From a virus: a stretch of DNA of 64,000 nt. The stretch lies in the IMG/VR virus record IMGVR_UViG_3300045988_180880, positions 288,001 to 352,000 of that record; one strand, given 5' to 3'. The notes beneath the pieces are model-generated. The model did no database searches, had not been told where the DNA came from, and was given only the letters and a program-made list of their open reading frames with translations. The position numbers and the translations under genes were made by a program. Below are positions 537 to 38,764 of the stretch, piece after piece. Position 1 is the first letter of the stretch; every line of letters starts with the position of its first letter.

Positions 537-720
537 TAAAATTTGTCGGATTAGATAAATAAAATCTAATGGAACTTTGTAAATTGCTGGAAGATCAAGT
601 AAAGATAAATCAGCAAAAGATAGTAAAAACTACCTTCTCAACGACTAGATACAAAGAGAGAGTTTATATATAAATTCTTAAAGATATAGTCTAGTTTAAC
701 TAAATAATTGTTAATATTCG
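537..720 (+). ncRNA. Group I self-splicing intron, family A, ORF-less (A1)
   Basis: Group I core: P1 CCGAU/GUCGG with U.G, P2 ATTAGA/TCTAAT, P3 CTTTGTA/TACAAAG, P4 TGCTG/CAGCA, R TCTCAACGACTA, S GATATAGTCT (683-692). Terminal G720, P10 TTT/AAA. Removal joins ..LNTD|KSVPLE.. in frame. Confidence 0.8.
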
Positions 721-1039
721 AAAAGTGTCCCTCTAGAGACAATGAACGAATTATGCGCTCGATTACAGAAACTTGCAAACAATACGAATGAGTTGTCTTC
801 ATTCATCACATCTCAGTTCGATGTCACCTCGTTCATTGAGTCTGCATTAACTCAAAATGTTAAGGTTTTTCCTGACTATAATAGTACCATTACCTCAAGG
901 ACTTCACTACTCCCACTTGATAAATTAACAGACAAACTTTTAGATCTTATACAGAATCTTGATTATGTAAGAAATAGTGTTCTTTCTCCTCTTGGATTAC
1001 CATCTACTATATTAGATGGAACATCTGGCAGTAAGTGGT
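721..1039 (+). CDS. Portal-like morphogenesis protein, exon 2
   Basis: Same frame as ORF-track 742..1074. It ends 1 nt into a codon at AAGTGGT| (GGU pairs with GCC guide). Contains the stretch SPLGLPSTILDGTSGSKW. Confidence 0.45.
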
Positions 1040-1228
1040 TAATAAATTGGCCGTCTAGAGAAGCAATTCTTTAGATAATTAGTAAGTAAATTTGGTGAAA
1101 CTATTAATACTAGTAATACCAAGCCTTAGATTAATCTAATTAAGGTATAACGAATAAAGACTTACCAACTTATAAAAAGTTGAATTTATATTCTAAACTA
1201 TAATAAAAAGATTATAGAGATATCATTG
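1040..1228 (+). ncRNA. Group I self-splicing intron, family B, ORF-less (B1)
   Basis: P3 GTAAGT/ACTTAC, P4 TTGGT/ACCAA, perfect P8 hairpin. The core and 3' tail (TTCTAAACTATAATA..ATTG|) closely match the terL intron. The splice makes codon T|CA and restores the frame (phase 1 on both sides). Confidence 0.7.
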
Positions 1229-1656
1229 CAGTACTTCAACAGTCAGAAAGAGCTAATTCAAGAGTAACATCATTAATTTCAGGAATAAAAGATTCAATAG
1301 TAAATCTTGTTTGTAGTATTTATAAGGTAATATATAATGAAGATTTAGATCCAAGTTTAGTTCAAATTCATATATTCCAGAAAACAACTGTAGAGTATAA
1401 CAATCAGATAAATGAAGCTGAATCAGTTAGTGGTTTAGTTCAAGGTATCTCTGGAGTTTTATCTAATGCACTCCAAACTTTAGAACAAGCAACTCCATTA
1501 ATTGAACCAGAATCATATTTAAGTTATATTCAAAACTTACTTAAAGATATTGACCCAAGTACAGAATCTCTAATAAATGAAGATACGATTAAGCAGTATA
1601 TAGAATTTCTTAATCAAAAACTTCAGGCACAACGAGAACAGCTTGGACTCAGTTAA
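1229..1656 (+). CDS. Portal-like morphogenesis protein, exon 3 (C-terminus)
   Basis: An open frame of 142 codons with no ATG, absent from the ORF track. It reads ..VLQQSERANSRV...QAQREQLGLS* and is only reachable by splicing. Confidence 0.5.
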
Positions 1657-1671
1657 AATTATTCAAAGAAG

Positions 1672-2037
1672 ATGATAATTAAACGTAAATTATTTGCTTC
1701 TAATGATCCCACTCCAGAACAGTCTCCAGAAATTGGTCTAGCTAAACAAGAAATGACTTCTAAGGACTTGCAAATAGAACAAATGAGACTTCAACGTCAA
1801 ATCCTAGAAACTCAGAGAATGCGACAGAGAATGCAAGCTGAGGAAAGAATGCAAGAAATGAAGCAAGTCAATCAAACTCAGAAACTAGAACAGAAAAAGG
1901 ATGAAGCTCAAAAAGATAATCAATTAAAAGTAAAGAAAATTGACGCTCAGAATAGTAGGCAGGAAGTAAATAATATAGGATTGTACAAAACAAAATCAAA
2001 GCCTACGCCAACAGTATCAATGAAAACAAACTTGTAA
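1672..2037 (+). CDS. Leader-tagged (MIIKRKLFA) Q/E/R/M-rich coiled-coil protein
   Basis: ORF track. N-terminal family leader, then charged heptad-like sequence. Confidence 0.6.
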   Translation: MIIKRKLFASNDPTPEQSPEIGLAKQEMTSKDLQIEQMRLQRQILETQRMRQRMQAEERMQEMKQVNQTQKLEQKKDEAQKDNQLKVKKIDAQNSRQEVNNIGLYKTKSKPTPTVSMKTNL

Positions 2038-2130
2038 GATTATGATTAAAGAAAAGACATTTACAGAAGGAGTGGAAGATTCTAAAGAACAAGAAGAGAA
2101 AGGATTTGATCCACTAAGACCGTATATAAA

Positions 2131-2364
2131 ATGAAAATTAAAAGATTTTCCGGTTATTCAGAAGCTGCCCCTGAAGGTGTAACTTATCAAAAATCAAGTC
2201 AGGTAATTACAAGATATATTCTTGATCCTCTTGATTCTAGTGTAGATACCTTAGAAGAAACAGATAAACTTGGGGTAACTAAACGAAAGAGTGATAGAAT
2301 TAAGAAGGTAATAAAACCTCTTAAAAAATATTTTAAATATAAATCAAATAAAAACAGTAATTAA
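2131..2364 (+). CDS. Leader-tagged (MKIKRFS) small basic protein
   Basis: ORF track; its ATG overlaps the upstream mini-ORF stop (ATGA). Confidence 0.55.
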   Translation: MKIKRFSGYSEAAPEGVTYQKSSQVITRYILDPLDSSVDTLEETDKLGVTKRKSDRIKKVIKPLKKYFKYKSNKNSN

Positions 2365-2366
2365 GT

Positions 2367-2951
2367 ATGTATATTAGACGTAAAGTATTCTCATTACTAC
2401 AAGATGAGACAGGAGAAGAGAGATACTTCTCTACTACTGATGTAACACTGGAAAATGAGGAAGAGAGAACCTTTAGTGTTGCAGAAGATGCAGAAAGTTT
2501 GGAAGAAAAGGATTTCTCTGATAAAAAAAAAGAGGAAGATGATGAGCCAAAACTTACAACTAGTGATAAGATTAATATTAAGTTGAATAAAGCTCTGATT
2601 ACTAAGAAGGATCGCGAAGCATTTGTTGAAGCTTATGAAGATGGAAAATCTCATAAATACGGAAAACAGGCAGCTAAGTATGCAGCAATTGGTAATGGTA
2701 TAGGTGGCGGTATATTAGGTGCTGCAGTTGGTGGTAAAAAGGGTGCAGCTATTGGAGCCGGAATTGGCGCTGTTTCAGGTGCAGCAGGATCTTATGCTGG
2801 TACTAGAGCAGGTGTTGCACTTAATAAGCTTGCTAGAAAACATAGTGGTAGTCTTGATACTAAAACAAAATTAGCAGTAGATCGAGTAAAAGTAGCAGAT
2901 GGAAAAATGACAAAAGAAGAATTTGCTAAAAAATGGAGATCTAAGAAGTAA
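2367..2951 (+). CDS. Leader-tagged (MYIRRKVFS) protein with glycine-zipper segment
   Basis: Leader plus internal xFS sites (RYFS, RTFS, KDFS). Gly/Ala-rich stretch IGNGIGGGILGAAVGGKKGAAIGAGIGAVSGAAG. Confidence 0.6.
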   Translation: MYIRRKVFSLLQDETGEERYFSTTDVTLENEEERTFSVAEDAESLEEKDFSDKKKEEDDEPKLTTSDKINIKLNKALITKKDREAFVEAYEDGKSHKYGKQAAKYAAIGNGIGGGILGAAVGGKKGAAIGAGIGAVSGAAGSYAGTRAGVALNKLARKHSGSLDTKTKLAVDRVKVADGKMTKEEFAKKWRSKK

Positions 2952-2960
2952 AAGAAATAA

Positions 2961-2995
2961 TCTATAGAGGTAGTGTAATCAATCTCCTCTATAGA
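2961..2995 (+). terminator. Stem-loop after CDS 2367..2951
   Basis: 10-bp perfect stem TCTATAGAGG/CCTCTATAGA with a 15-nt loop; no clear T-run follows. Confidence 0.35.
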
Positions 2996-3096
2996 ACAAA
3001 CGCGCTAGATTTTTACAACCGAAGATTAATCGCACTAGGTGCAAAAAGTAAACGGTTGATAGTTGTAAAGCGCGAGAACTATAAAATAATAAATGT

Positions 3097-3614
3097 ATGA
3101 TAGGAACAGTTAACCCATTTAGTGACCCTGAATTTAAGAAACAAATTTTAGGGAAAGAAGGGAGAGCTGTTGATGACCCGGGAGATTATGAGATTTTGCA
3201 GCCGGAAGAGGATGTATCTAAAAACCTAAAAAATATTATAGGGTCAGCTCCAGTACTCCCTAAAACGGCTCGCAATATTATTATGGATGCTAGTGCTATT
3301 GCGAGTAATCAAAAAGAACAAAAAGCACTAGAATTAACTCATAAATTGAATGAAGTCTTTACTAGTTATAATAAAGAATATAATATAGATCTTCATGTTG
3401 ATTTCGGAAGCCTCTCAAATACTTTAGTTAATGTGGCAGATCCGAAGTCTAGACATATCTTAGAATTATATGTTTCTGAGGTATTTCAAAGTATAAGACC
3501 TATTTTAATTCTCAATATGATTTCTAAACTTTGTCTTTGTATTGATTATATACTCGATCCAATGAGACTCTTTGATAGTTCACAAATGACTTTACAAGAT
3601 TCATTTATTGCCGT
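3097..3614 (+). CDS. Hypothetical protein, exon 1
   Basis: ORF-track 3097..3633. Predicted 5' splice site TTGCCGT| (CCGU pairs with GCGG at 3625-3628), phase 2. Confidence 0.55.
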
Positions 3615-3805
3615 TAATATATCTGCGGCTTAGTTGAAATACTAAGAAAATTATACTAAAATGCTGAAAGATAGTTAAAACATAAATCAGCAAAAAGGAT
3701 TACTAATATAAATCCTTTCTCAACGACTAAATGTATAACTAAATTTGAAATATAATTTAGATGATATAGTCTAATTTAATAAAATAAATATTAAAAATAG
3801 ATATG
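3615..3805 (+). ncRNA. Group I intron, family A (A2)
   Basis: P2 CTTAGT/ACTAAG, P GCTGAAAG, Q AATCAGCA, P6 AGGATT/AATCCT, R TCTCAACGACTA, P8 CTAAATT/AATTTAG, S GATATAGTCT (3763-3772). Terminal G3805, P10 TCT/AGA. The splice removes an in-frame TGA. Confidence 0.8.
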
Positions 3806-3992
3806 AGAAAAAATTATGCAATTTATTCAACAATTAGAAGATATGAAGAGTCAGATAATTGTTAAAGGTTCTGATCTTGAATTGAAAAAAATTGCAGAAG
3901 AATCTGGAAATGAAGAGTTGAATAGTGAAGAGTCTAAGCAAATAGTAGCAGACTTTATGAGATTATTTCAAAAAGAACATGGAATAGAATAA
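3806..3992 (+). CDS. Hypothetical protein, exon 2
   Basis: GT|A junction codon, then EKIMQFIQQLEDMK...QKEHGIE*. Frame is consistent with the phase-2 donor. Confidence 0.55.
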
Positions 3993-4124
3993 AAAATGAG
4001 ATACACTATTCTCACGAACTATGTATCTCTACTTTAAATTATGATAATACCTACTACGACATAGGTAATTAGTACTATTTCTATATAAAAAGTGTAGTAA
4101 AGAAATAGCACTCGTTTATTCTAC

Positions 4125-4144
4125 TACACATATATAAGGCTTTT
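4125..4144 (-). promoter_or_regulatory. Copy of the conserved motif TACACATATATAAGGCTTTT
   Basis: One of 7 copies. This is the only copy without a minus-strand ATG 17-24 nt away. It lies 49 nt upstream of the tRNA cluster. Confidence 0.4.
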
Positions 4145-4192
4145 AAGTTTTATGATATTTTCTGATTTATATTTCATAATTAAATCAGAATT

Positions 4193-4266
4193 GCCTCTTT
4201 AGCTCAGTTGGCCAGAGCACGTGATTTGTAATCTCGGGGTCGTTGGTTCGAATCCGACAAGAGGCT
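4193..4266 (+). tRNA. tRNA-Thr: tRNA-Thr (anticodon TGT)
   Basis: Hand-folded cloverleaf: acceptor GCCTCTT/AAGAGGC, D arm GCTC/GAGC, anticodon loop TTTGTAA, T arm GTTGG-TTCGAAT-CCGAC. Confidence 0.85.
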
Positions 4267-4277
4267 CAAAAATAATA

Positions 4278-4350
4278 TTCTCCGTTAGCTCAGAGGCAGA
4301 GCATTTGACTGTTAATCAAAGGGTCGGTATATCGTAATTACCACGGAGAG
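4278..4350 (+). tRNA. tRNA-Asn: tRNA-Asn (anticodon GTT), atypical T arm
   Basis: Acceptor TCTCCGT/ACGGAGA is perfect; D arm GCTC/GAGC; anticodon stem TTTGA/TCAAA with loop CTGTTAA. The T arm (GGTA-TATCGTAAT-TACC) lacks the canonical TTCGAAT. Confidence 0.55.
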
Positions 4351-4358
4351 CTGTTTTA

Positions 4359-4443
4359 GGAGAGGTGGCAGAGTGGTCGATTGCGGCGGTCTTGAAAACC
4401 GTTGTACTGCGAGGTACCCGGGGTTCGAATCCCTGTCTCTCCG
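4359..4443 (+). tRNA. tRNA-Ser: tRNA-Ser (anticodon TGA), class II
   Basis: Acceptor GGAGAGG/TCTCTCC, anticodon loop CTTGAAA, long variable arm, T arm CGGGG-TTCGAAT-CCCTG. Confidence 0.85.
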
Positions 4444-4488
4444 CAATAATTTTAAAGATAAGAAAAATTATAAAAAAAACAATTAATT

Positions 4489-5273
4489 ATGGGAAAAGAG
4501 AAATATAACAAAGAAGAATTAATAAGATTATTAATTCATGAAGGAAAATCTTATAAAGAAGTTGCAGCTATGCGGGGTGATGGAAGCACTGGAGAAGCTA
4601 TACGTAAAGCAGCAAATAGATACGGGATAAAAGTATCAGATAGAAAGAAACTAAGAAAATGTGAATATTGTGGTAAAGAGCATGATGGTTCTTTTGGTTC
4701 TGGAAGATTTTGTTGTTCAGATTGTGCAAAGAAATATTCACTTAGTTTCAGCAAAGGTAAAAAACCAGAAGATAAATCTACTAAAGAAGAAAAAGTAGAA
4801 GAGTCTGTAAAGATAGCTCCTCCTAAGGAATGTACCACTGAATTGTCTAGATTTGATGGAAAATTAACTTCAGATTTATTAGGATATGTAGGTGAATGTG
4901 CGACAATGTTTCAATTAGCAAGAGTTGGAATTATGTCATCTAAACCTTGTGGAGTAGATAGATATGATGTAATTGCAGATATAGGAGGAATACTTTATAA
5001 AATTCAGGTTAAATCTACTGCTGGCTATATTGATAAAGATGGAGCATTATCGTACAATCTTCAAAATAAATCTGGATTATATAAAAAGGTGAAGTAGATT
5101 TCTTTGCCTTGTATAATTATGTACTTGATATTATACTATTAGTTCCCTTTAGTATACTTGAAGGTAAATATAAGGTGCGTATTCATTTTGGAAAAGAAAA
5201 AGATGAATCAGATTTATTCTTTTGGAAAGATTATATTTTATTTGATGTAGCGAAATCTTTATTATCCAGTTAA
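4489..5273 (+). CDS. PD-(D/E)xK (I-Ssp6803I-like) homing-endonuclease-like protein; needs a -1 shift at T_AAA_AAG (5082-5088)
   Basis: ORF-track 4489..5097 has a Cys-rich Zn motif (CEYCGK..CCSDC) and [18 protein letters not shown]. The -1 frame continues from 5088 for 61 more codons ([11 protein letters not shown]..), ending at 5271-5273. Sits among tRNA genes. Confidence 0.5.
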
Positions 5274-5286
5274 TTAATAATAAGTT

Positions 5287-5368: not shown

Positions 5369-5388
5369 CATAAAATAAAATTATAAAT

Positions 5389-6372
5389 ATGAAAGTAAAA
5401 AGATTTAGTAAATTAGATACTCTACAAGATTCTATAAAAATTGTAAGTAAGAAAACAGGAGAATCTCTCACAATAAATAGATTTAAATCTTTTGTAGATA
5501 TTCTTGGAAAATTTATTAAGAGACTTAGAGAATGGAGTAATAAGAGACCGTCATTTGATATTTACTTAGGTTCTGAGAAAGTAGCAGAATTAAATCTTAT
5601 AGAAAAGTCCAAAGAAGAATTAAATATAATGTGGATTGAAACTTATGAAGATTATAGAGGTAAAGGATATTCTCAGGCTATTCTAACAGAGTTGATTAGA
5701 TTTGCTAAGTCTCAAGGTTATAAATATGTTACTCTTGAAGTGCCTGGTAGATCTCCTGATGCTAGACATATTTATGAGAAGCTTGGATTTAAGGATGATG
5801 GAGTCTTGACAACCCCAGAAGAAGATTTTTATTGGGGAGGTCTTACTAGAATGAAACTTAAATTGTTTGCAAATATTACTAATGTAACAAGTTTAACTCC
5901 ATTGAAAAATATAATAACAACTACTACTAGAAAAGCTACCGGACTATCTAATTCTAAAATAGCAACACAAGCAAAGAATGCAGCATTAGATTTACACTCT
6001 GTAACTAAAGATGCTCAAAATTCTTTTATATCTCCTAATGGTAATGGATATGTAACTAAAAGTTATTTTACTAAAAGACGTCCTAAAGGAAAGAAAGTTG
6101 AGTTTGTAGGAGATTTATTTGGGAATCCTAATCAATTACAGAAACCGAAAGTTATTAATAGCAGCAGTAGTAATAAAGGAGGAAATTCTTCAATTAGTAG
6201 TTTAGATGCTAAAAGAATGAATTTAAAACGGTATAATTCTCATAAAACAAGATCTTTGGAAGTAACACCTACTGCACCTGGACAAAATGAGTGGGTTAAA
6301 CGTGTAAAAACTAATGGACAAGCTAGGTGGGAAAATAATGGGTTATATATTCCTGGTTTTGAGAAATTATAA
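5389..6372 (+). CDS. Leader-tagged (MKVKRFS) GNAT-family acetyltransferase with basic C-terminal extension
   Basis: GNAT acetyl-CoA motif A-like sequence YEDYRGKGYSQAILTELIRFAKSQGYKYVTLEV..ARHIYEKLGF. Confidence 0.6.
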   Translation: MKVKRFSKLDTLQDSIKIVSKKTGESLTINRFKSFVDILGKFIKRLREWSNKRPSFDIYLGSEKVAELNLIEKSKEELNIMWIETYEDYRGKGYSQAILTELIRFAKSQGYKYVTLEVPGRSPDARHIYEKLGFKDDGVLTTPEEDFYWGGLTRMKLKLFANITNVTSLTPLKNIITTTTRKATGLSNSKIATQAKNAALDLHSVTKDAQNSFISPNGNGYVTKSYFTKRRPKGKKVEFVGDLFGNPNQLQKPKVINSSSSNKGGNSSISSLDAKRMNLKRYNSHKTRSLEVTPTAPGQNEWVKRVKTNGQARWENNGLYIPGFEKL

Positions 6373-6392
6373 AAAGAGAAAGGATCAAAATT

Positions 6393-9878: not shown

Positions 9879-11327
9879 ATGATAGATACTAAATTATTAC
9901 CAGTACCTTTAGAGTATTCTTGTCCAATAGTAATGAGAGTAAAACTTCCCAGAAGAAATGATAGTGGGAGATTAAACTATTATACGTATGTTCCAGAATT
10001 AGGTACTTGGGTATTAGAAAAGATGAGAAATTCAGTTTTTAAGAAATTACAAAAATTAAATATAACTTTTAGGGACTGGGAAAATAGATGGTTACTTAAA
10101 TTACAACCATCTGATATGTATTCAGAACTTTGGGTAGATAAAATAATAGAAGTTTATTATAAAGATAAATTACCAAATACAAAAAGTTATATAAAAGATC
10201 AATTATTGTTAGATAATGATTATGTATTTACGGGTGTTATGGTTAAAGAGGATTTAATGGATATATTTATTAAATCTCGGGAGGGTAGTTTTATAGACAT
10301 AGTATATAATTATGATTTAGTACCTAAAATAATCGAAAAACTTACAGATGAAATATGTTTACAGTATTTAAATGATAATAATGAATATGAAAAATACTAT
10401 ACTACGTATTCAGATTTTATTTCAAGAGGGCTAAATTGTAGGTATTATGCTGCTAAACTTAGAAAAATAACGCTTAGTAATAAAGAATATCATTCGAGTA
10501 GATTAAAGACAACAGAAGCTTATATTACAGAATCAAAAGCTAAGTTTGGAGAAAATTCCTTTGAATATTTATCTGAATATACTGGAAGAATTGATAAAAT
10601 GACTTTTAAATGTAATAAGTGCGGAACAACTTTTTCGGTTTTAGCAAAAACACATTTAGAAAGTTCTCATGGTGGGTGTCCAGTTTGTAATACTAATTCT
10701 ATAAAAGAAGATAGAAAGTTTTCTAATCAAGACTTTCAAAATAGGTTGGATAATATTTATGGAATTGGAAAGTATAAGTTAATATCTAACTTTATCAATT
10801 GCAAGACTACTGTGGAAATTTTAGATCTTGAAACAAATACTATATTTAAACAAGATCCAGAGAATTTATTATATCATGGACTTACAGATCCTAGTACTGT
10901 TACTAAATCAAAGGGAGAACGATTAGTAGAGCTTTGGATTAATAAAAATTCAGATAAAATATTGGATTATAAGTGGAATACTAAAGTAAGTGGAATAGAG
11001 GGCAGGTGTAGAGATTATGTTATGATTGATTTTATTATTAACTATGGTGGGAAAACCATATGGATTGAATATAATGGAATTCAGCATTATACATATTTTT
11101 CACTATATCACAAATATGATAAAAATCTTTTTGATGACCAAAAAAGAAGAGATGAAAATGTAAGAATTTATTGCAAACAGAATAATATAATGTTGGTAGA
11201 AATTCCTTACACTATAAGTTCTTTTAAAAGAGTTTCTGAATTTTTAAATAAAGTAGTTTTTGAAAATATTGATCCAAGTACTTTAGTAGATTATAATCTT
11301 TTATATGAAACTACAAAAGGAAAATAA
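9879..11327 (+). CDS. Free-standing homing-endonuclease-like protein (Zn-ribbons plus Vsr/DUF559-like PD-(D/E)xK C-domain), paralog 1
   Basis: CNKCGTTF..GGCPVCN, and C-terminus DFIINYGGKTIWIEYNGIQHY..DDQKRRDENVRIYCKQNNIMLVEIPY. Paralogous to 26877 and 39120. Ends 20 nt before the 3-intron protease gene. Confidence 0.6.
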   Translation: MIDTKLLPVPLEYSCPIVMRVKLPRRNDSGRLNYYTYVPELGTWVLEKMRNSVFKKLQKLNITFRDWENRWLLKLQPSDMYSELWVDKIIEVYYKDKLPNTKSYIKDQLLLDNDYVFTGVMVKEDLMDIFIKSREGSFIDIVYNYDLVPKIIEKLTDEICLQYLNDNNEYEKYYTTYSDFISRGLNCRYYAAKLRKITLSNKEYHSSRLKTTEAYITESKAKFGENSFEYLSEYTGRIDKMTFKCNKCGTTFSVLAKTHLESSHGGCPVCNTNSIKEDRKFSNQDFQNRLDNIYGIGKYKLISNFINCKTTVEILDLETNTIFKQDPENLLYHGLTDPSTVTKSKGERLVELWINKNSDKILDYKWNTKVSGIEGRCRDYVMIDFIINYGGKTIWIEYNGIQHYTYFSLYHKYDKNLFDDQKRRDENVRIYCKQNNIMLVEIPYTISSFKRVSEFLNKVVFENIDPSTLVDYNLLYETTKGK

Positions 11328-11569: not shown

Positions 11570-11760
11570 TATTGCTAATAATGAGAGGCATAGATAAAAA
11601 GTTTATGAAAATGTTTTTAATTGCTGGAAAAAATAATAAATTAAATCAGCAAAAATAGATAATAAAATCTATTTCTCAACGACTAGAGTAAACACTAAGA
11701 ATACCGATTAATTCTTAGATAATATAGTCTATTATTGATTTTAAAATCAATTAGGTTAAG
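11570..11760 (+). ncRNA. Group I intron, family A (A3)
   Basis: P2 CATAGA/TTTATG, P AATTGCTGGAAA, Q AAATCAGCA, P6 ATAGAT/ATCTAT, R TTCTCAACGACTA, S AATATAGTCT. 3' end at G11760; alternative G11770. Confidence 0.7.
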
Positions 11761-11949: not shown

Positions 11950-12132
11950 TAATTAACTGAGACTTAAGAAATTCATAAGTTCTTAAGAAAATTTCATAAA
12001 ATGCTGGAAAGGTTAGAATCAAATCAGCATCATCTAGCAGATAGCGAGATGTTCAACGACTAAAGATGGAACCTAGATTTTTAGGATAATATAGTCTAAA
12101 TTTAATAGCAAGCAATATATTAAAAAAAATTG
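11950..12132 (+). ncRNA. Group I intron, family A (A4)
   Basis: P1 TCUU/GAGA, P2 CTTAAGAA/TTCTTAAG, P AAATGCTGGAAA, Q AATCAGCA, R GTTCAACGACTA, S AATATAGTCT. G12132 is the only in-phase G; tail ends AATTG|. Confidence 0.8.
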
Positions 12133-12756
12133 GGATATTGGGAAAATTCTAGCGGAAGTGACTATTTAAAGCGTATGGTTGCGCTAAAAGGGGCTGACCT
12201 TACATTAAACCCTTCTTGGAAAAATGCGGGTATAGTTTCAATTGATGGTTCTGAGAGCGAAAAAACATTCTCTGAACTTGATATAGAGTATGATCCTGAA
12301 GCTTATAAGGATACAAAAATAAAAGTTAAGCAATTTTCTAACTTCGATTCGGGAGATTTATTAAAGTCTTCTAAGATTAATGGAAAGTTTACGCAATTAA
12401 AAGCTAAATCATTTTCATTTAATTCTGAAATAAATTCAATAGAAGATACTATCGTTAGTGAATCTGTAATAGAAGAACCTATTCAAAAAGATTTCTCAGT
12501 TGCTACAGTTAAAGAGAGAGTTAGAATTGGAAAGATGTCCCCTCGCCAAAGATTTCGTCTACTTGTTTTAGAATATAAGCAAGCAGTAAAACAAGCTGGT
12601 GGTTCTGAAAAGATGGATCCAGAAACACTTAAAATCATGAAGTCTTTGTTTACTACAGATCTTTTGGATATTATGAAGTCGATTACACCAGAAATCATGA
12701 ATGGAAAAAATCCAGGAACATTACTTGGTGCTTCTAGTTTAGGTAAGAATGTACGT
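12133..12756 (+). CDS. gp21-like prohead protease, exon 3 (plus scaffold-like extension)
   Basis: GYWENSS..KGADLTLNPSWKNAGIV aligns with gp21 GVDAVWGPSAPDAWV. Internal xFS sites (KTFS, KQFS, KSFS, KDFS). Donor GTACGT| (ACGU pairs with GCGU). Confidence 0.6.
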
Positions 12757-12930
12757 AAATAATATGCGTTTTTTATATGAATTGCTGGAAATATCTAAAT
12801 GAGATAAATCAGCATCAAATCATACTTAGATAAATCTAAAGAAGTGATTTGTTCAACGACTATGTATATAAACTGTCAAAATAGACAGAAGATATAGTCT
12901 AAATTATAAATAAATTTTATAAATACATTG
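12757..12930 (+). ncRNA. Group I intron, family A (A5)
   Basis: P AATTGCTGGAAA, Q AAATCAGCA, R GTTCAACGACTA, S GATATAGTCT (12891-12900). Tail ends CATTG|, P10 TAT/ATA. Phase 0 on both sides. Confidence 0.8.
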
Positions 12931-23901: not shown

Positions 23902-25909
23902 ATGGCACAATGGACTGAAACTCTCGAACCGTATGTAAAAGTTATAGAGAGAGTACATACCGCAGCTCTTAATCCTACTGCAGGTGAAAGTTTAATTATC
24001 GGAGTGACTTTAATTTCTGATGCAGGCCCAGCAGTTCCTACACTGATCTCTAGTCAATCTGAATTCTTAAAAACTTATGCTTCAGGGGACTTAACAGAAG
24101 ATTATATGGCATCCTTGAATAATCTTTATCATGATGCTAATAATACAGGAGATAAAAATGTAGCTGCAACAATGTGGATGAATGCTTATAGATTGGCTGG
24201 CTCTAATGTTATGCTGGTTTGTAGAGCATCTAAAGCTAACGATATCTACTACGCTAAACCCATGACTAAAACTGATTATAGTACATATATCCTTAGAGAT
24301 GGTGCTTTAATGAAGGGATTTAGAGATGCTGATAAAGGTGTCGTTAAGTTTGTTCTTGATATTGATGGTGATGATGCAGAACATGATCAAGATGGATGGT
24401 CAATTAATTTGAATGGAGTAGGTATTCTTGGTAATCGTACCACCGATGATGGTCCTCAATATGATTACTATGTAAGAACTCTCCCCGACTTAGTAAATCA
24501 AATGAATGAAACTAATAAATTCTTCTCTCCATCTTATAAATTCTTCACAGATCCTAATAATATCATCTCTGAAAATGAAACAACTGATCCCGATAAAGCA
24601 AAGGCAGTTGTATTCTATGAACTTTATCTAGGACAGGATATGCTAGATACTTCAGACTCTAGATGTCCACTAGGAAAGCAGTATATCGTGATTTGTGAAC
24701 CTGATTGGACTAGTGATAATCCTAATCAAAAACTTATAGATATTAATGCTTCCGCTTGGTCTGGTTTCGAAGAACAGAAATATTATGCAGTTAATCAATA
24801 TAACTCTAATACTGATCTGAGAGTTAGAATTAGACGTTTTAATCATGATGCAGTAGTTACCAAAGAATTAACTAACCCCGCTTTGAACGAAAACTCTGAT
24901 TCTCCTTATATGGTACTATCGGCCGTTCTAGATACCTATACTAAGAAAGGAACAGTAGAACCGTCAGAAAGTATCCTACAGCGAGATTTTTATGAAGTCG
25001 CTGTTCTTGATCCTAATATTTCTGACGAAGTACAGTTCTTTAATATAGGTAAAGTAACCGGCCGTGGAGATATGGAAGTATCAGAACTCAATGAACTCCT
25101 AAGTATGATTCAACTTCAACTCCCTGACGATATGAGAGAGCTTGGATTGAACTACTATGGATACGGAGCTGATGATAAAGTATGGGTAGAACTTGATCCT
25201 AATGACCCAAATGCAGGTTCTTATAAGCAAACAGTTTCTTCAATGACTGATCTTTACAACTCAATAGGTATGTCAGTTGGAGATGTTTACCGAGTTGGAT
25301 CTGGAAGTTCATATAAGTACTATGAATATCAAGAAAATGGTGGAGATCAAGTTTATGCAAAATTAGGCGTAGATCCAACTGAAACAGATATTCTTGACGT
25401 ATCTGAATCGGATCTTAAGAAAGCACTTGACGAAATCAATATTCAGGAAATTTATGTGGTTGAAGGATTATGTGACCTTGGAAATACATCACTAAGTTTC
25501 CAGAATTACTTGGCTAATATGGCTATCAACTCTAACTATTTCTATCCAATATCAACAGTTCAGAGCACAAATTATATGACTATCGCTAATAATGCAACTA
25601 AGATAGCACAAGATTCATATAAACTCTATCTATCTGCACCTTGGGATATCGACTCTGGTACATTTGGATGGAAATATTATTGCTCACCTGCTGTTGTTTA
25701 CTGGGAAGCTGTAGCTAGAAACCGTAGAAATAATGCAGAATTTGCTCCTGTACTTGGACAAACTAATGGTATTGTTCAGTATCAGAGACCTATGACAGAG
25801 TTTAATAAAAAAACTCGTCAACTTCTATTATCTAAACGAGTAAATACTGTACTCTGGAATTATCAAACTAATGCTTGGAACATGAATGATAAACAAAATT
25901 GTCCAATTT
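23902..25909 (+). CDS. Tail sheath protein, exon 1
   Basis: 670-aa ORF with a sheath-like N-terminus (GVTLISDAGPAVPTLISSQSEFLKTY) and C-region (SPAVVYWEAVARNRRNNAEFAPVLGQTNG..LLSKRVNTVLW). Donor AATTT| (pairs with GAAT), phase 1. Confidence 0.7.
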
Positions 25910-26098
25910 ATTGAAATTGAATTTTTATGAACTGCTGGGATTTATATAAAAAAAATAAAAATCAGCAAAAAGGATTACTAATATAAATCCTTTCTCAACG
26001 ACTAAGTATAAAAGATAAATAAATTTTATTATTTTTCAAGATATAGTCTAGCGAAATTACCAAATAATTTTCTAAAACGAATTATACTAAGCAAAGTG
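25910..26098 (+). ncRNA. Group I intron, family A (A6)
   Basis: P3 TTTTAT/ATAAAA, P AACTGCTGGGA, Q AAATCAGCA, P6 AGGATT/AATCCT (same as A2), R TCTCAACGACTA, S GATATAGTCT. G26098 is the only phase-compatible terminal G. Boundaries +/-20 nt. Confidence 0.7.
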
Positions 26099-26331
26099 TG
26101 GATAATATTGTTTCAGATGAAGGTAACTCTCGTTTAGCTATTCGTATCTCAAAAGCTATGCCTGTACTACTTAAACAGTATATAGGCTGGAGAATTGCAC
26201 CAAAACTATGGGAAAGTGCGATTGGAACTATCGATTACTGGTTTAAATCAACTATTCTCCCAATGTCTTATAATATCGATGATTACCGTATTATCATCGA
26301 TGAGACAAATAACCCTGTTCAAATTCAGCGT
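26099..26331 (+). CDS. Tail sheath protein, exon 2
   Basis: ..DNIVSDEGNSRLAIRISKAMPVLLKQYIGW...IIIDETNNPVQIQR. Donor CAGCGT| (GCGU pairs with GCGC). Confidence 0.65.
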
Positions 26332-26510
26332 AAATAATTGCGCCTTGGATTTTTATATTACCAAGAAAAATAAGAGAATTGCTGGAAGATAATAAAATAA
26401 ATCAGCAAAGAAAGTTTACAAAAATTTTCTCTCAACGACTATGTACTTATTAAAATGATATAGTCTGATCTTAAATATTAATCTTATATTTAAGTTTAAC
26501 AATAATGCAG
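26332..26510 (+). ncRNA. Group I intron, family A (A7)
   Basis: P2 CTTGG/CCAAG, P AATTGCTGGAAG, Q AAATCAGCA, R TCTCAACGACTA, S GATATAGTCT, P9 CTTAAATA/TATTTAAG. Terminal G26510, P10 ATT/AAT. Joins IQR|NKMVVNV. Confidence 0.8.
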
Positions 26511-26569
26511 AATAAAATGGTGGTTAACGTTTTGGTTAGATACCAGAGAGCTTTGAAATATGTCATCGT
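26511..26569 (+). CDS. Tail sheath protein, exon 3 (59-nt mini-exon)
   Basis: NKMVVNVLVRYQRALKYVI, typical of a sheath C-terminal strand. Donor ATCGT| (UCGU pairs with GCGA), phase 2. Confidence 0.6.
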
Positions 26570-26737
26570 AAAGTATATGCGATTATTATACCAATTGCTG
26601 GAACTTAATAAATCCAAAGAATCAGCAAAAATAGATATAATTCTATTTCTCAACGACTAGATGTATAATTAAAATTTCATGAAGATTTTAAAAGATATAG
26701 TCTGAACATGAGTAGATAATACTTAGCAAACATATTG
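26570..26737 (+). ncRNA. Group I intron, family A (A8)
   Basis: P3 TATAC/GTATA, P AATTGCTGGAAC, Q GAATCAGCA, P6 ATAGAT/ATCTAT-like, R TCTCAACGACTA, S GATATAGTCT. Tail ends TATTG|, P10 TAT/ATA. Confidence 0.8.
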
Positions 26738-26876: not shown

Positions 26877-28175
26877 ATGCAAAAATTTACAAAAGATGAA
26901 ATAATATATAATATTATTTCAAAATTAACTAAAGATATTGAATTCCTAGGATTAGAAAACTATTCAAAAGATATATCTACAAAAAAATTAAAAATTATTT
27001 TAAGATGTAAATTACATAATATAAGTAAAATTATAAAATATTCTAGTTTTATATTAAATGGATGGCATTGTCCTGAATGTTCAAAAATAAAAAGAACACT
27101 TCCAGAAAATATAGCAATAGAAAGAATACAAAAATCCATATTAAAGAAAAATAATGAAGGGAGTAATATATCTTTTTTAGGATTTGTAAATTTTTGGAAA
27201 GGCTCATCAACAAAATTGATTTTAAAATGTAATATTCATAATATTATTTGGAAAACAACGACCTATAATGGATTTATTTCGAATAATTTAATTGGTTGTC
27301 CTGAATGTTCAAAAGAAAGAAAAAAAAGAAAATTAACTAATTTAGAAGCAGAAAATAATATAATCGAATTTCATAAATCATCTTCTACAAATGAATCGTC
27401 AATATTTTGTAATATTCATAATAGCTACACAGGTTATAATTCTCCAGTTGAATTAGTTTGTTATAAACATGGAAAATTTTCATGTTATTATAGTTATTTA
27501 ATGACTGATAAAAGTAGAAATATTATACTATGTCCTAAATGTAGAGAATTATTTGAACGTGAACAGGAAAAGAAAAGATATCATAACTTAATAATAGATA
27601 GAGTAAATCATTTAAATAAAAAATATAATATATCTTTAGAATTTTTAGGATTTAAAGAAGAATTTAATTATCAAAATACATATCTAATACTAAAATGTAA
27701 TATTCATAATCATATTTGGGATACTACTAGACTAGGTATATTTTTAAAACATGAAGGAAAATACTGTATATATTGTTCAAAAACTAGTAGTATTTCGTTT
27801 ATGGAAAATTCTTTATACTCTATTTTAAATAGTTATTATTTAAACATAATTCGTCAATATAAATTAATAATAAATAATAGAATATTTTATTTAGATTTTT
27901 ACATACCAAAATTAAATGTAATAATAGAGTATGATGGAAAACAACATTATGAATTTACTTCTTTCTTTCAACCCACATATCAAAATTTCGTAAATCAAGT
28001 TAACCGAGATAGATGTTTAGAACAATATTGCAAAGAAAATAATATAAAACTTCTTCGAATTTCTTATAAAGACAATAATAGAATCCCTGAAATCATAAAG
28101 ATATTTTTCGAAGAAGGAAAAGATATAACAACAAAAGTAGAACCTAAATTATTACCAGTATTATATCATGGATAA
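26877..28175 (+). CDS. Free-standing homing-endonuclease-like protein (Zn-ribbon repeats plus Vsr/DUF559-like domain), paralog 2
   Basis: Repeated CPECSK/CPKC ribbons. C-terminus LDFYIPKLNVIIEYDGKQHYEF..VNRDRCLEQYCKENNIKLLRISY. Starts 61 nt after the sheath gene. Confidence 0.6.
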   Translation: MQKFTKDEIIYNIISKLTKDIEFLGLENYSKDISTKKLKIILRCKLHNISKIIKYSSFILNGWHCPECSKIKRTLPENIAIERIQKSILKKNNEGSNISFLGFVNFWKGSSTKLILKCNIHNIIWKTTTYNGFISNNLIGCPECSKERKKRKLTNLEAENNIIEFHKSSSTNESSIFCNIHNSYTGYNSPVELVCYKHGKFSCYYSYLMTDKSRNIILCPKCRELFEREQEKKRYHNLIIDRVNHLNKKYNISLEFLGFKEEFNYQNTYLILKCNIHNHIWDTTRLGIFLKHEGKYCIYCSKTSSISFMENSLYSILNSYYLNIIRQYKLIINNRIFYLDFYIPKLNVIIEYDGKQHYEFTSFFQPTYQNFVNQVNRDRCLEQYCKENNIKLLRISYKDNNRIPEIIKIFFEEGKDITTKVEPKLLPVLYHG

Positions 28176-35090: not shown

Positions 35091-35099
35091 AATAAGATT

Positions 35100-37454
35100 A
35101 TGTATTTAAGATTAGGAACAACTAATATAAAGTACTCCACTGAACAAGATGATTTTACAGTATTTTCTGAAGTTGTAGATTCTAAGATGTCATATGAGAA
35201 ACCAGTACTTGTGAGAACTCCTGATGAACTTGACATCTGGTTTGGATCAGATTTTCCAGGGAAAGATTATTACGATGAACTTTTAGAATCTGGAGTTACT
35301 TTATTTTTATATAGACCAATTAAGGTTGAACAAAATACTAATGCTCCTGACTATATTGATCTAAAAGAATATTCTATAGATCAAAAATTATACTATAACT
35401 TAACAGAACTTCCAGAAGTCGGAGAAGATAAAGTTTTGTATAAAGTAGTAACAGGAGAAGGCGAATATAAAGAAGGAAATTTGTGGTATACTCTTTATAT
35501 ATATTATCTAGGAGAATATATGAAAATCCTAGAATTACCACAAAATCTTGACACTAATAATACGAGTTCTCTAGAAAATAGAGATGTATTAAATATAAAT
35601 TATCCAGGTTTTATTGGACCTGAATATTGTTATCCGAAATATATAGAGGAAGGAGATGTTGATTATACTGAAAAAATTGATGAAGAAGTATTATTATCTC
35701 ATCTTCCTGATCTGCTAAGAGTATCAAAAGGGTATGAAACTTTAGCTTATTCCTTAGTATATAACCCTGAGATAGATTTTTACCCGGTAGACGAGGGATT
35801 AACTTCTAAATATATAATCCTGAAAAAACTTAAAAATGACTCTTATGAAAATATAATGATTTGGTTTAAAGAGGAAATTAATAGTATCCCTAATATTCCA
35901 AGTCAATATTATGATGAAGCAATTGAGGTTGAAATTAAAGCAAAAGAAAGTAATAAGGAAATTTTCAAGAGGTTAGTAGAAGTTATAATTCCAAGTCAAT
36001 TAGGTTATACTATCGAAGGAAATATCTCGGAGGGTTACAAAATATACACATCATATTCTATTCAAGTTACCTATTTTACTAATATTACTGGTCTATTATT
36101 CGAACCAGATTTTAACACTACACACAATATACTATCAAAAATCTCGAGTGGAAGTACTAGAATGAGATTTATATCGAAAACAACTGGTACTGAAGGTGGA
36201 GATTCCGAATATTTAGATAGTGATATTAGTGTAAATATTGAGAAACTGAAGGGAGATGATAAATATAGAGTAACAATCGAGAGGTATAAATATCAAGAAA
36301 TTTATGAAGGTGGTTTATTTACTATTGGACAGGAAAGGCTTGATACTATAATTACTTCAGAGTCTAAGTTAGTTAGATGTATTCTTTCAACATCTTACGT
36401 AAATCGAGAGACAGATGAAGAGGTAGAGTATAAAAAAGGTTCTAAAGAATCTGAATTACCCTCTGGAACATGGTATCTTAAACGAGCCTGGAAAGAAACG
36501 GCCGAAGATATAAATGGGGAATATTGGAAAGCGGCAGAGGCTATTTTTGGATCTGACAACGCTGGAATTATTGATTATTTCTTAGTCCCTGATATCTATA
36601 AATACTCGGCCGGAATGAAGACAGGCTCGGAGACTAGTTATTATCCAGAATATGAGAGATTTTTAGGATATGCGAAGAGTTTAGGTTTTCAAGTATTATT
36701 CCAAAATTCTGATAATGGATGGACCTACGTAGAAACTCAAGAACTTCCATCGGCCGAAGATATAACCTCAGGAACAATTTATATAGTATCACAACCTACT
36801 GGAGGAGTAAAATTCTATAAAGTAGAGAATGGAAACTTAATAGAAACAACTGACCCTGAGGAAACTAATACGGCCGGAAATAACTACGTCTTTAATTATA
36901 CCTCTGATGCTGATAATCGACTCTTATATTTTTATCGAGGGCAGACAATTTTTGGGCAAGATAGACCTGGATATTACTTACATATTAGAGGGCTCTTACA
37001 AGATATTTACTCAATAACTAGCGATCAAATCTTATATCAAACACCTACAACAGATCCTTACACCTTTGAATCACCAGAAGATAAACTTGAGGAATACAAA
37101 AGTAATTATCTAGTATTCAATAACCAGATATATTACTATAAAAAATATCAAAATGGACAAGACTTCAATACTTCAGGGTGGATGAGATTCTGTATAGGAA
37201 AAGTAGCGAGAGAATTGGAAAAGAATAAATGGAAAATTCTTAGTACTAAATCAGCCGGAGATATAAGAGCTAGAATAGAACAGATCTTAAATAGGATATC
37301 AACTGGGTACTCATATATAGATTCATTAGTTATTACTGGATTTTACCTAGACTTACCAAATAATAGACTAGGACTTGAAGTGGAATCTAGAATGAGTGAC
37401 TTAGTAGATAATGATATGACGATCGATATAACTTTAAATTACGATAAAAAATAA
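35100..37454 (+). CDS. Large tail/baseplate-associated structural protein (function unknown)
   Basis: 784-aa ORF just upstream of the tube gene. Contains four CGGCCG sites within 36499-36876. Confidence 0.5.
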   Translation: MYLRLGTTNIKYSTEQDDFTVFSEVVDSKMSYEKPVLVRTPDELDIWFGSDFPGKDYYDELLESGVTLFLYRPIKVEQNTNAPDYIDLKEYSIDQKLYYNLTELPEVGEDKVLYKVVTGEGEYKEGNLWYTLYIYYLGEYMKILELPQNLDTNNTSSLENRDVLNINYPGFIGPEYCYPKYIEEGDVDYTEKIDEEVLLSHLPDLLRVSKGYETLAYSLVYNPEIDFYPVDEGLTSKYIILKKLKNDSYENIMIWFKEEINSIPNIPSQYYDEAIEVEIKAKESNKEIFKRLVEVIIPSQLGYTIEGNISEGYKIYTSYSIQVTYFTNITGLLFEPDFNTTHNILSKISSGSTRMRFISKTTGTEGGDSEYLDSDISVNIEKLKGDDKYRVTIERYKYQEIYEGGLFTIGQERLDTIITSESKLVRCILSTSYVNRETDEEVEYKKGSKESELPSGTWYLKRAWKETAEDINGEYWKAAEAIFGSDNAGIIDYFLVPDIYKYSAGMKTGSETSYYPEYERFLGYAKSLGFQVLFQNSDNGWTYVETQELPSAEDITSGTIYIVSQPTGGVKFYKVENGNLIETTDPEETNTAGNNYVFNYTSDADNRLLYFYRGQTIFGQDRPGYYLHIRGLLQDIYSITSDQILYQTPTTDPYTFESPEDKLEEYKSNYLVFNNQIYYYKKYQNGQDFNTSGWMRFCIGKVARELEKNKWKILSTKSAGDIRARIEQILNRISTGYSYIDSLVITGFYLDLPNNRLGLEVESRMSDLVDNDMTIDITLNYDKK

Positions 37455-37462
37455 TAAAAACT

Positions 37463-37602
37463 ATGGCAAGCGTAGCAAGTTTAGTCCGCGGAAGTGACGG
37501 ATACATGAAATTTATTGACTATCAAAGTACATATAAAGATAATAATAAAGAATTCCTTCGTGGTGACATGTGGGAACTTCAATTCATTAATGTACCTAAG
37601 AT
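37463..37602 (+). CDS. Tail tube protein (T4 gp19-like), exon 1
   Basis: MASVASLVRGSDGYMKF..FLRGDMWELQFINVPK. Donor CTAAGAT| forms a 7-bp P1 with GTCTTAG (U.G at the site), phase 2. The genomic frame stops 16 codons later. Confidence 0.65.
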
Positions 37603-37763
37603 AAATAATTGTCTTAGTAAAACTTTGTAAACTGCTGGAAGATCAAGTAAAGATAAATCAGCAAAAATAGATAAAAAATCTATTTCTCAACGACTATTAG
37701 CAAAGAAAAGAAATAGCCATAGATTTCTTTTATGATATAGTCTAAACATAGAACAAATGTTTG
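37603..37763 (+). ncRNA. Group I intron, family A (A9)
   Basis: P3 CTTTG/CAAAG, P AACTGCTGGAAG. The 5' half is nearly identical to A1. P6 ATAGAT/ATCTAT, R TTCTCAACGACTA, P8 AAGAAAT/ATTTCTT, S GATATAGTCT. Terminal G37763. Confidence 0.8.
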
Positions 37764-37965
37764 AGTTTATTTCCCTGGTACTGATATTTTCAATGCTAGA
37801 TTAAATGCCGTTCAGGTAGGTATTGATTATAGTGTATCAGGTTTTGAAAAGAGAATGCGTGGTAATTATACTATCATTCAGAAGACAGGTCAAAACACAG
37901 CTGGAACCCTGTCGTTGGCTTTTGTAGATAAGGAAGATCAGGCAATTACTTACTGGTTTGATAAT
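37764..37965 (+). CDS. Tail tube protein, exon 2
   Basis: AT|A junction codon, then VYFPGTDIFNARLNAVQVGIDYSVSGFEKRMRGNYTIIQK..AFVDKEDQAITYWFDN. Donor GATAAT| (pairs with GTTGTC). Confidence 0.6.
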
Positions 37966-38182
37966 TTAAAAGTTGTCCATTAAGAGATTAAAAGTTCCTT
38001 AATGAATCTTTGTGAACTGCTGGAAATTTTAATCGCTCAAGAATGATAAAAACTAAGAGCGGAAAAATAATCAGCAGAAATAGATATGATTCTATTTTTC
38101 AACGACTAAGTACAAAGAAAGAGGATAAGCCATAGTTCCTCTTATGATATAGTCTAGTATGATTTAAAACAAAAACCATAAG
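37966..38182 (+). ncRNA. Group I intron, family A (A10)
   Basis: P2 CATTAAG/CTTAATG, P3 CTTTG/CAAAG, P AACTGCTGGAAA, extended P5, Q TAATCAGCA, R TTTCAACGACTA, S GATATAGTCT. 3' end at G38182 (alternative G38183). Confidence 0.7.
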
Positions 38183-38368
38183 GACTATCGCCAGAAAATT
38201 GCAGATCGTGATACTAAATATTCTTTCAGAAAGGATGACTTAGTATGCGACCTTAGATTAATCTTAACTAACTCAAGCCGTATCAAAGTTCGTACTCTTA
38301 ATTTCTATAACTGTATTCTTCAGGATGCACCGATTGATGAAAATGGGCAGACTGAGGACGGAACCGAT
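38183..38368 (+). CDS. Tail tube protein, exon 3
   Basis: DYRQKIADRDTKYSFRKDDLVCDLRLILTNSSRIKVRTLNFYNCILQDAPIDENGQTEDGTD. Donor CCGAT| (CGAU pairs with GTCG), as in A1. Confidence 0.6.
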
Positions 38369-38559
38369 TAATAGCTTAGTCGCTTAAATAATAAAATTTA
38401 AGAAAATTATACTAAAATGCTGGAAAAATCTTGGTTATACCAAGTATAAATCAGCAAAAACTATTAAAAATAGTTTCTCAACGACTAAATGTATAACTTA
38501 AGAAGTATTAATTCTTAAGATGATATAGTCTATAATATATTAATGTATATTAACAAATG
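38369..38559 (+). ncRNA. Group I intron, family A (A11)
   Basis: P2 CTTAAAT/ATTTAAG, P3 TTATAC/GTATAA, P AAATGCTGGAAA, Q AAATCAGCA, R TTCTCAACGACTA, P8 CTTAAGAA/TTCTTAAG, S GATATAGTCT, P9 TAATATA/TATATTA. Terminal G38559. Confidence 0.8.
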
Positions 38560-38583
38560 CGAGCAGATATCCAAGTCAGCTTT
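38560..38583 (+). CDS. Tail tube protein, exon 4 (24-nt micro-exon)
   Basis: RADIQVSF resembles T4 gp19 ..EIQTFEV. Donor GCTTT| (CUUU pairs with GAAG, directly before P2). Confidence 0.5.
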
Positions 38584-38764
38584 TTCAAATGAAGAAGCAT
38601 AAAGTAATATAAACTTTATGAAAAATTCTATTAAAATGCTGGAATATCAAATAGATAATCAGCAAAAATTAGAAAAGATCTAATTTCTCAACGACTAAAT
38701 ATAGAACTAAGTTTGAAATATAATTTAGATGATATAGTCTATTCATTGATAAAAATAATTAATG
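38584..38764 (+). ncRNA. Group I intron, family A (A12)
   Basis: P2 CATAAAG/CTTTATG, P3 TTCTAT/ATAGAA, P AAATGCTGGAAT, Q TAATCAGCA, R TTCTCAACGACTA. P8 is identical to that of A2. S GATATAGTCT. Terminal G38764 gives a consistent frame. Confidence 0.75.

Follow-up and report, generated by a model that had tools for sequence, protein, structure and literature searches.

We analysed 64,000 nucleotides (nt) of viral DNA (IMG/VR record IMGVR_UViG_3300045988_180880, positions 288,001 to 352,000; this whole stretch is referred to as the window), in which the GC content is 31% and every gene lies on the + strand. The core motifs TGCTG..TCAGCA..AACGACTA..ATATAGTC co-occur 13 times in the window, on the + strand in all cases, and define 13 elements (A1 to A13, collectively family A) that are 161–220 nt long, sum to 2393 nt, are devoid of open reading frames (ORFs) and are spread over at least five protein genes (Table 1). 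Read as RNA, these motifs correspond to P4 (TGCTG(G/A)..), P4' (AATCAGCA), J6/7-P7 (TCAACGACTA) and J8/7-P7' (GATATAGTCT), i.e., to a near-invariant catalytic core with P4 as TGCTG/CAGCA, and the positions of P2, P5, P6, P8 and P9 are taken by variable hairpins. An additional occurrence of AACGACTA, at 55306, lies within a coding sequence and was rejected as a chance match. Altogether, A1–A13 are one family of compact, ORF-less group I introns of a jumbo phage, and their peripheral helices form a mosaic in which the nearest relative of an intron changes from one helix to the next.

The splice sites of each copy were set by three criteria: a U paired to a guide G at the 5' site, a terminal G and the restoration of the reading frame. 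The U at position −1 is paired to a G at intron position 9–17 in 13/13 copies, within P1 helices of 3–7 bp (just 3–4 bp in A3–A7, A10 and A11), and all 13 end on the expected terminal G (omega G). In matching tests, guide sequences form better pairings with the 5' exon of their own intron than with those of the other introns, and P3 strands likewise prefer the partner strand of the same intron (p ≤ 5e-5 in both cases). P3 covaries: about nine different sequences, all of them fully paired, occur among A1–A13, and P4 and P7 are invariant. The core follows the standard order (P3, P4, P6, P7, J8/7), as seen in full-length alignments to the Rfam model RF00028, and a P8 hairpin stands between P3' and J8/7 in 12 of the 13 introns, A7 being the exception. 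An earlier reading of this DNA, made from the letters alone (hereafter the sequence-only reading), had stated that the P1, P2 and P3 regions match the local exon; this holds for the guide (P1), which fits its own exon, but P3 is unpaired with the exon and common to some copies, and P2 is likewise common to paralogues.

To place the junctions in a comparative frame, viral contigs were scanned with the core pattern and two helix sequences, which yielded 131 loci (L001–L131), mostly from contigs of 250–400 kb, many of them 90–99.8% identical to parts of the window; together, the window and these loci provide 144 unique family members. All 13 junctions agree with uninterrupted homologues or intron-less alleles found among related phage contigs of 250–400 kb and database proteins, so that the 13 A-type introns announced by the sequence-only reading stand as 13 + strand copies with confirmed junctions. 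The downstream limit, which that reading had set at 38764, has to be moved: A12 ends at 38773, and homologues lack the three residues that an end at 38764 would add. Intron-less alleles exist in close relatives for A2, A5, A6 (about 13 loci) and A8. Conversely, three sites that are empty in the window bear an intron in relatives, i.e., 25726 (L038, L105, L110, L113, L116, L118, L130), 26237 (L106, L122, L124, L127) and 38347 (L008, L023, L045), and the strains taken together show at least five intron sites in the gene of a 793-amino-acid (aa) protein. As far as sequence comparison can establish it, these exact junctions and the polymorphism of the sites support precise excision of A1–A13.

Table 1. 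Family A introns, gene with the tail-tube fold and HNH genes of the window (in the last column, a slash marks the splice point in the protein sequence).
Feature	Position	Strand	Length	Structure, kinship or content	Junction or neighbourhood
A1	537–720	+	184 nt	P1 CCGAT/GTCGG; P3-P4-P5-P4' block 573–618 common with A9	LGLNTD/KSVPLETM unbroken in uninterrupted homologues L133 and L147
A2	3615–3805	+	191 nt	Phase 2; P1 GCCGT/GCGGC; P3 identical to A11; P6 identical to A6; P8 21/22 with A12	SFIAVEKIMQF unbroken in intron-less alleles L152–L156
A3	11570–11760	+	191 nt	P1 CCTT/GAGG; P6 of ATAGAT type, 25/26 with A9; P8 related to A11	KDDLL/LLIGESS set by uninterrupted homologues of 405–412 aa
A4	11950–12132	+	183 nt	P1 TCTT/GAGA; every helix private	SCVVL/GYWEN continuous in homologues
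A5	12757–12930	+	174 nt	Without P2; long P6	Intron-less allele in L057; LGKNVR/ISVQ continuous in homologues
A6	25891–26079	+	189 nt	P6 identical to A2 (29/29), all else different	NMND/NYTKQ continuous in homologues; intron present in 18 and absent in ~13 related loci
A7	26332–26507	+	176 nt	Without P8	VQIQR/QNKM continuous in homologues
A8	26570–26737	+	168 nt	Without P2; P6 of ATAGAT type	Intron-less allele in L031; YVIV/YHDIF continuous in homologues
A9	37603–37763	+	161 nt	Without P2; mosaic of three parts: P3-P5 as A1, P6 as A3/A8, P8 as A10; RF00028 29.3 bits	
A10	37963–38182	+	220 nt	Long P5 (48 nt); RF00028 36.1 bits, E 3.7e-7	
A11	38369–38559	+	191 nt	P3 identical to A2; RF00028 match	
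A12	38584–38773	+	190 nt	P8 as A2	
A13	38786–38960	+	175 nt	P1 GAACAT/GTGTTT; RF00028 27.1 bits	Beyond the span of the sequence-only reading
Tail-tube-fold gene	37463–38987	+	195 aa, 588-nt coding sequence	Five introns (A9–A13, 937 nt)	Exons 37463–37602, 37764–37962, 38183–38368, 38560–38583 (24 nt), 38774–38785 (12 nt), 38961–38987
Free-standing HNH homing endonuclease gene	9879–11327	+		PHROG 559, E 5.5e-28	Ends 20 nt before the A3–A5 gene
Free-standing HNH homing endonuclease gene	26877–28175	+		PHROG 559, E 1.6e-41	Starts 60 nt after the stop of the A6–A8 gene
Free-standing HNH homing endonuclease gene	39036–39962	+		PHROG 559, E 3e-35	Starts 48 nt after the stop of the A9–A13 gene

Generic models do not reveal these introns when the window is searched as a whole: an Rfam scan of the full 64 kb, at the gathering score and also at E ≤ 10, returned tRNAs only, without RF00028, and a scan of positions 1–4100 at E ≤ 1 gave no match. 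When pieces of 1–1.5 kb were searched, RF00028 matched A7–A11 and A13 with sub-threshold scores of 20–36 bits, in alignments that span the full model length with the helices in the expected order; even the best of these scores, that of A10, is below the Rfam gathering threshold of 50 bits. Since the whole-window scan misses such introns, counts of group I introns derived from generic models may be too low. Most of the introns start with AAATAAT or TAA, and these leading stop codons cause ORF callers to end genes at the splice site.

To compare the introns helix by helix, we used the four invariant core motifs as cut points, which delimits five variable units: U0 (P1-P2-P3 5' strand), U1 (P5), U2 (P6), U3 (P3'-P8) and U4 (P9). 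Whole-unit tests were preferred because hairpins cannot be aligned between types, so that site-wise tests would mostly measure alignment noise. The helix sharing pointed out by the sequence-only reading was recovered throughout. A1 and A9 have a near-identical P4-P5-P4' block (45/46 nt, 573–618 vs. 37621–37666) that contains the 34-mer TGCTGGAAGATCAAGTAAAGATAAATCAGCAAAA (585–618 and 37633–37666); the P6 block AAAAGGATTACTAATATAAATCCTTTCTC is identical in A2 and A6 (29/29; 3693–3721 and 25968–25996); the P8 hairpin CTAA(A/G)TTTGAAATATAATTTAG agrees at 21 of 22 positions between A2 and A12; a P6 of the form ATAGAT..(A/T)TCTAT recurs in A3, A8, A9 and A10, which are 76–96% alike across the block; and the P8 hairpins of A9 and A10 are 75% alike, with the loop AGCCATAG in common. 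Two further cases were absent from its list, i.e., the identical P3 and J3/4 of A2 and A11, and the related P8 hairpins of A3 and A11.

Across the 78 intron pairs, the median identity per variable unit is 0.52–0.63, which reflects the AT-rich background, with a 95th percentile of 0.69–0.88, and the named shared units score 0.88–1.0; the similarities thus exceed what core conservation alone would give. Fisher tests comparing the shared unit with the rest of the same pair (390 tests for the Bonferroni correction) leave four significant pair-unit results: P6 of A2–A6 (29/29 vs. 85/151 in the rest; p = 3.9e-7, Bonferroni 1.5e-4), P6 of A3–A9 (25/26 vs. 78/144; p = 1.2e-5), P6 of A8–A10 (21/24 vs. 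82/182; p = 5.9e-5) and P5 of A1–A9 (20/20 vs. 89/147; p = 1e-4, Bonferroni 0.039). The P3'-P8 unit of A2–A12 (31/34 vs. 91/147; p = 4.7e-4) is nominally significant only. Mantel correlations between the five unit similarity matrices range from −0.25 to 0.29, none of them significant, and the nearest neighbour varies by unit, as in A2, where the five neighbours are A11, A7, A6, A12 and A5. The view that these introns are mosaics of individual helices is therefore borne out by both the per-unit tests and the uncorrelated matrices: family A displays segmental mosaicism at the level of single helices, far above core conservation.

The relatives make helix replacement directly visible. Orthologous sites were recognized by matching exon tags on both sides; similarity of P1-P2 was tried as a same-site criterion and dropped as misleading, P2 itself being common to paralogues. 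At strictly orthologous sites, where the flanking DNA is 90–99% identical and the exons about 95–99%, unrelated helices are found for A7 (P2, P5, P6), A8 (tip of P8), A9, A10, A11 and A12 (P8, P5). For example, the A7 orthologue in L079 has a different P2, P5 and P6; the A8 orthologues bear several different P8 tips; the A10 orthologues in L008 and L074 have a P5 of 78 nt instead of the 48 nt of the window; the A11 orthologues in L008, L023 and L115 differ in P2 and P5; and the A12 orthologue in L045 has an unrelated P8. Because these differences separate close strains, replacement must be recent and faster than point change. Moreover, some of the alternative helices have counterparts elsewhere in the family: in some strains, the P5 at the A11 site is common with the intron at site 26237, and in other strains it is of the type GAAAATGTAAAACATAAA, whose cluster occurs at nine or more other sites, and the A11 P2 recurs in L089.

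Among the 144 introns, one four-gamete violation was identified, in which two P3 types and two P6 types occur in every possible combination (A3; L016 and L122; A11; L127), such that a single tree would need convergence; a second P3 × P6 cycle is weak and consists of a shared stem only. Units shared together are mostly structural neighbours (P3 with P8 in 35 cases, P3 with P5 in 31, P5 with P8 in one, P6 with P8 in none), a bias that fits core-bounded patches and the need to keep P3 paired. At polymorphic sites, differences between intron-less and intron-bearing alleles lie close to the insertion point: 7 of 14 nt differ for A8 (26556–26569 and 26738 vs. L031), and three synonymous changes fall within 10 nt for A2 (3610–3614 and 3806–3815 vs. 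L152). Such junction-centred differences are expected from co-conversion, or when the target of an endonuclease or guide is lost. Within the A3–A5 gene, the 5' part is unalignable at the DNA level upstream of 12352 in some relatives, and an intron with P3 and P5 of A3 type and P6 of A11 type stands at about the A4 position in L016 (1776) and L122 (8208), an arrangement that suggests a recombination boundary inside this gene.

In our opinion, the pattern is likely to reflect an old intron family whose peripheral helices have been replaced in core-bounded patches, at least partly copied from other members. The age of the family would account for P1-P2-P3, P5, P6, P3'-P8 and P9 having diverged to background level between the core blocks; short patches bounded by these conserved blocks would then be replaced as units, and for part of these replacements the sequence would be copied non-reciprocally, by short-patch gene conversion or recombinational repair, from another member, either of the same genome or of a co-infecting relative. 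The homology required would be offered by the conserved blocks (8–13 nt) or by longer stretches shared within P3 groups. Non-reciprocal copying of patches would explain why single helices are 88–100% identical in otherwise unrelated introns, and exchange would mostly take place within groups of the same P3 type because P3 must stay paired. The three adjacent free-standing HNH endonucleases (see below) would probably supply the double-strand breaks, which would promote patch repair as well as the gain and loss of introns (collaborative homing); that paralogues act as donors and that these enzymes take part is what we infer. Recombination or gene conversion among the introns, a cause already put forward by the sequence-only reading, is the most economical explanation of the mosaic. 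It draws its support from the helix replacement at orthologous sites and the four P3 × P6 combinations, the window being insufficient on its own, and gene conversion from other family members is the probable source of at least some patches.

Several points weigh against this explanation. The self-splicing of A1–A13 is itself something that we infer from their sequences; the core blocks available for homologous pairing measure no more than 8–13 nt; the four-gamete cases involve short AT-rich hairpins and single-linkage clusters, the second being reduced to a common stem; and no donor was found among the 144 introns and 1.2 Mb of related DNA for the P8 of L045, the P5 of L008 or the P5 insert of L044. 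Some hairpins probably arise de novo or from unsampled donors. Furthermore, no pair of units breaks infinite-alleles compatibility, whether the window is considered or the first 113 unique members of the family, and a single tree can be constructed in which the carriers of each shared helix type of the window stay connected. This mutual compatibility means that the window alone is no proof of exchange, since duplication and helix replacement give the same picture, and it also speaks for descent and helix turnover only. There, copies would have spread by duplication or transposition, and hairpins would have been replaced by new sequence (slippage, small palindromic insertions, deletions), none of it copied from other introns, the helices still shared being those not yet replaced. 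New hairpins without counterpart at orthologous sites, such as the TA-repeat P8 of L045 and the 12-nt P5 insert of L044, are in line with such a history. Yet, it demands five to six independent replacements (P1, P2, P3, P5, P8, P9) in A2 or A6 with the 29-nt P6 left unchanged, and, over the 13 introns, about 39 replacements where about 10 patch transfers would suffice; it also conflicts with the four P3 × P6 combinations and with the recurrence elsewhere of both P5 types of the A11 site. As a complete account, we regard turnover without copying as unlikely, albeit deserving of serious attention, and turnover without a resident donor does explain part of the pattern, possibly including cases of the window itself.

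It could also be argued that the similarities result from functional constraint or convergence (e.g., on tertiary contacts) and amount to no more than core conservation, considering that the stems are short and AT-rich and that the P6 flanks (AAAA..TTCTC) are conserved in the family, which raises the background to about 63%. However, P5, P6 and P8 each fall into 85–97 sequence clusters among the 144 members, hence almost any hairpin is tolerated and P8 can even be absent, loops are identical as well as stems, and the shared units are outliers within the family, all of which makes this explanation very improbable. As for the idea that the elements are intergenic repeats or regulatory RNAs located between short genes instead of introns, it would agree with the failure of the whole-window Rfam scans to report a group I intron and with the stop codons that ORF callers meet at the start of most copies. 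It is nevertheless refuted by the homologue alignments, in which exact removal of the elements restores colinearity with uninterrupted proteins, including a 195-aa protein assembled from six pieces; together with the intron-less alleles and the full-length RF00028 alignments obtained once less sequence is searched, this leaves it with next to no credibility.

Returning to the introns themselves, some members are without P8. In A7, just 16 nt separate P7 and J8/7, and the RF00028 alignment deletes all 59 P8 model positions. This type is found in 28 of the 144 unique family members (e.g., L089:652, L090:4970, L014:11844, L019:3166). A7 must be removed exactly, because homologues read VQIQRQNKM gap-free across its junction. 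To our knowledge, no group I intron that naturally lacks P8 has been described, and a literature search for one found none, its terms mostly matching unrelated papers. One could speculate, although we deem it rather doubtful, that the family is a naturally modular ribozyme, in which P2, P5, P6 and P8 would serve as exchangeable cassettes, with a turnover that outpaces the accumulation of point substitutions, and in which P8 would be dispensable: A7 and about one fifth of relatives lack it, in essential genes. Helix turnover might even be selected, as it would lower homology, and thereby mispairing, between neighbouring introns split by exons of 12–24 nt.

Exons of this size belong to the gene that hosts A9–A13, in which a sixth intron, at window position 38347, is present in L008, L023 and L045. 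The spliced 195-aa protein has 382 database homologues, mostly of exactly 195 aa and uninterrupted, with 66–87% identity, and an uninterrupted homologue gene is carried by one 51-kb contig. According to its AlphaFold2 model, for which the Foldseek matches in the PDB are contractile-tail tube and baseplate tube proteins, the protein has a predicted contractile-tail tube fold. Pfam and PHROG searches of the intron-host proteins returned no named family, a tblastn search of the spliced 195-aa protein against INPHARED phages gave no match, and a PDB sequence-profile search produced nothing useful.

The three HNH paralogues of Table 1 are the only ones that a paralogue search detected in the window; each adjoins a gene with three or five family A introns and none is located inside an intron. 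The combination of an adjacent free-standing HNH gene with introns that are polymorphic (A2, A5, A6 and A8 are absent in some relatives) corresponds to the arrangement of collaborative homing. Some 5' exon ends are also alike: ACCGAT precedes both A1 (531–536) and A11 (38363–38368), and (A/G/T/C)CGT precedes A5 (12753–12756), A7 (26328–26331), A8 (26566–26569) and A2 (3611–3614). Such alike 5' targets are compatible with introns that spread through reverse splicing, or through an endonuclease that favours certain sites. Introns may plausibly have reached new sites with an altered guide; sites are polymorphic, and A1 and A11 have the 5' exon end ACCGAT in common.

Elsewhere in the window, six tRNA genes (Thr, Asn, Ser, Tyr, Gln, Pro) lie among small ORFs between 4193 and 9723, with no suppressor tRNA seen. 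A second intron-like repeat family (family B) is characterized by the motifs GTAAGTAAATT(C/T)GGTGAAA .. TAACGAATAAAGACTTAC .. TATATTCT(G/A)AAC. Copies occur at about 1042–1218 in the window (end of the A1-bearing gene) and at 5749–5945 in L008; the window copy is 85% identical to copies in L014, L015, L035 and L058, and an Rfam search gave no match for this repeat.

From a practical perspective, family A introns split genes into pieces that ORF callers list as separate small genes, with stops at or near the intron start, and intron counts and gene catalogues of large gut phages may accordingly be too low or too fragmented. From an evolutionary perspective, a group I intron of this kind is not inherited as one piece, the helices between the core blocks having separate histories, which makes trees of whole introns unreliable for such families; family A thereby constitutes a natural many-copy data set for the study of intron evolution. 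A9 (161 nt, without P2) and the A7 type (without P8) are candidate natural group I ribozymes of very small size, and ribozyme specialists may value the P8-less members, the five to six introns of a 588-nt gene and the Rfam miss above the mosaic itself.

How do these introns compare with known systems? In the Jug jumbo phages of the gut, whose genomes measure 360–402 kb at about 30% GC, essential genes are fragmented, HNH endonuclease genes that stand alone are numerous, and a genome has on average 18.5 short ORF-less group I introns with a mean length of 206 nt; metatranscriptome read mapping supports splicing for 37 of 76 of their introns (PMC12880540). The text of that paper contains neither the word mosaic nor the words gene conversion (PMC12880540). 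With 31% GC in the window and close relatives that are viral contigs of 250–400 kb, up to 401 kb, the GC content and the sizes of the relatives would fit membership in the Jug clade. A difference is that 13 introns of one family are packed here within 39 kb and that all of them were missed by the whole-window Rfam scan, which suggests that model-based intron counts may miss many; the Jug paper used other covariance models (PMC12880540). In collaborative homing, a free-standing endonuclease cooperates with an ORF-less intron (reviewed in PMC3984707). The likeness lies in the ORF-less introns beside free-standing HNH genes, the polymorphic sites and the exon differences clustered at the junction; the difference lies in the number of introns, with one candidate endonuclease gene per gene of three to five introns. 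In phage Twort, the structural gene orf142 is described as containing three small group I introns that are related to one another (Landthaler and Shub 1999, as cited in PMC3073962). By comparison, the tail-tube-fold gene holds five introns, six in some strains, in a coding sequence of 588 nt with exons as short as 24 and 12 nt.

Mosaicism within group I introns has precedents, too. The omega intron of yeast mitochondria is a fine-scale mosaic owing to recurrent gene conversion, introns being more mosaic than exons (PMC4059233). There, the mosaic is found among alleles of a single intron that occupies one site in different species, whereas family A involves different sites of one genome, with single helices as the units. 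For phage T4, Bryk and Belfort (in Nature in 1990) reportedly observed that the td, nrdB and sunY introns recombine at short conserved core sequences and yield chimeric introns. Those crossovers arose in the laboratory and also deleted the DNA between the introns, whereas the exchange envisaged here would be natural, many-copy and patch-like, with the genome arrangement left intact. Given these precedents for group I introns, for multi-intron jumbo phages of the gut and for mosaic introns, neither the elements nor the process is new in kind; the new aspects of family A are its scale, its grain at the level of helices and the fact that replacement can be observed directly at orthologous sites.

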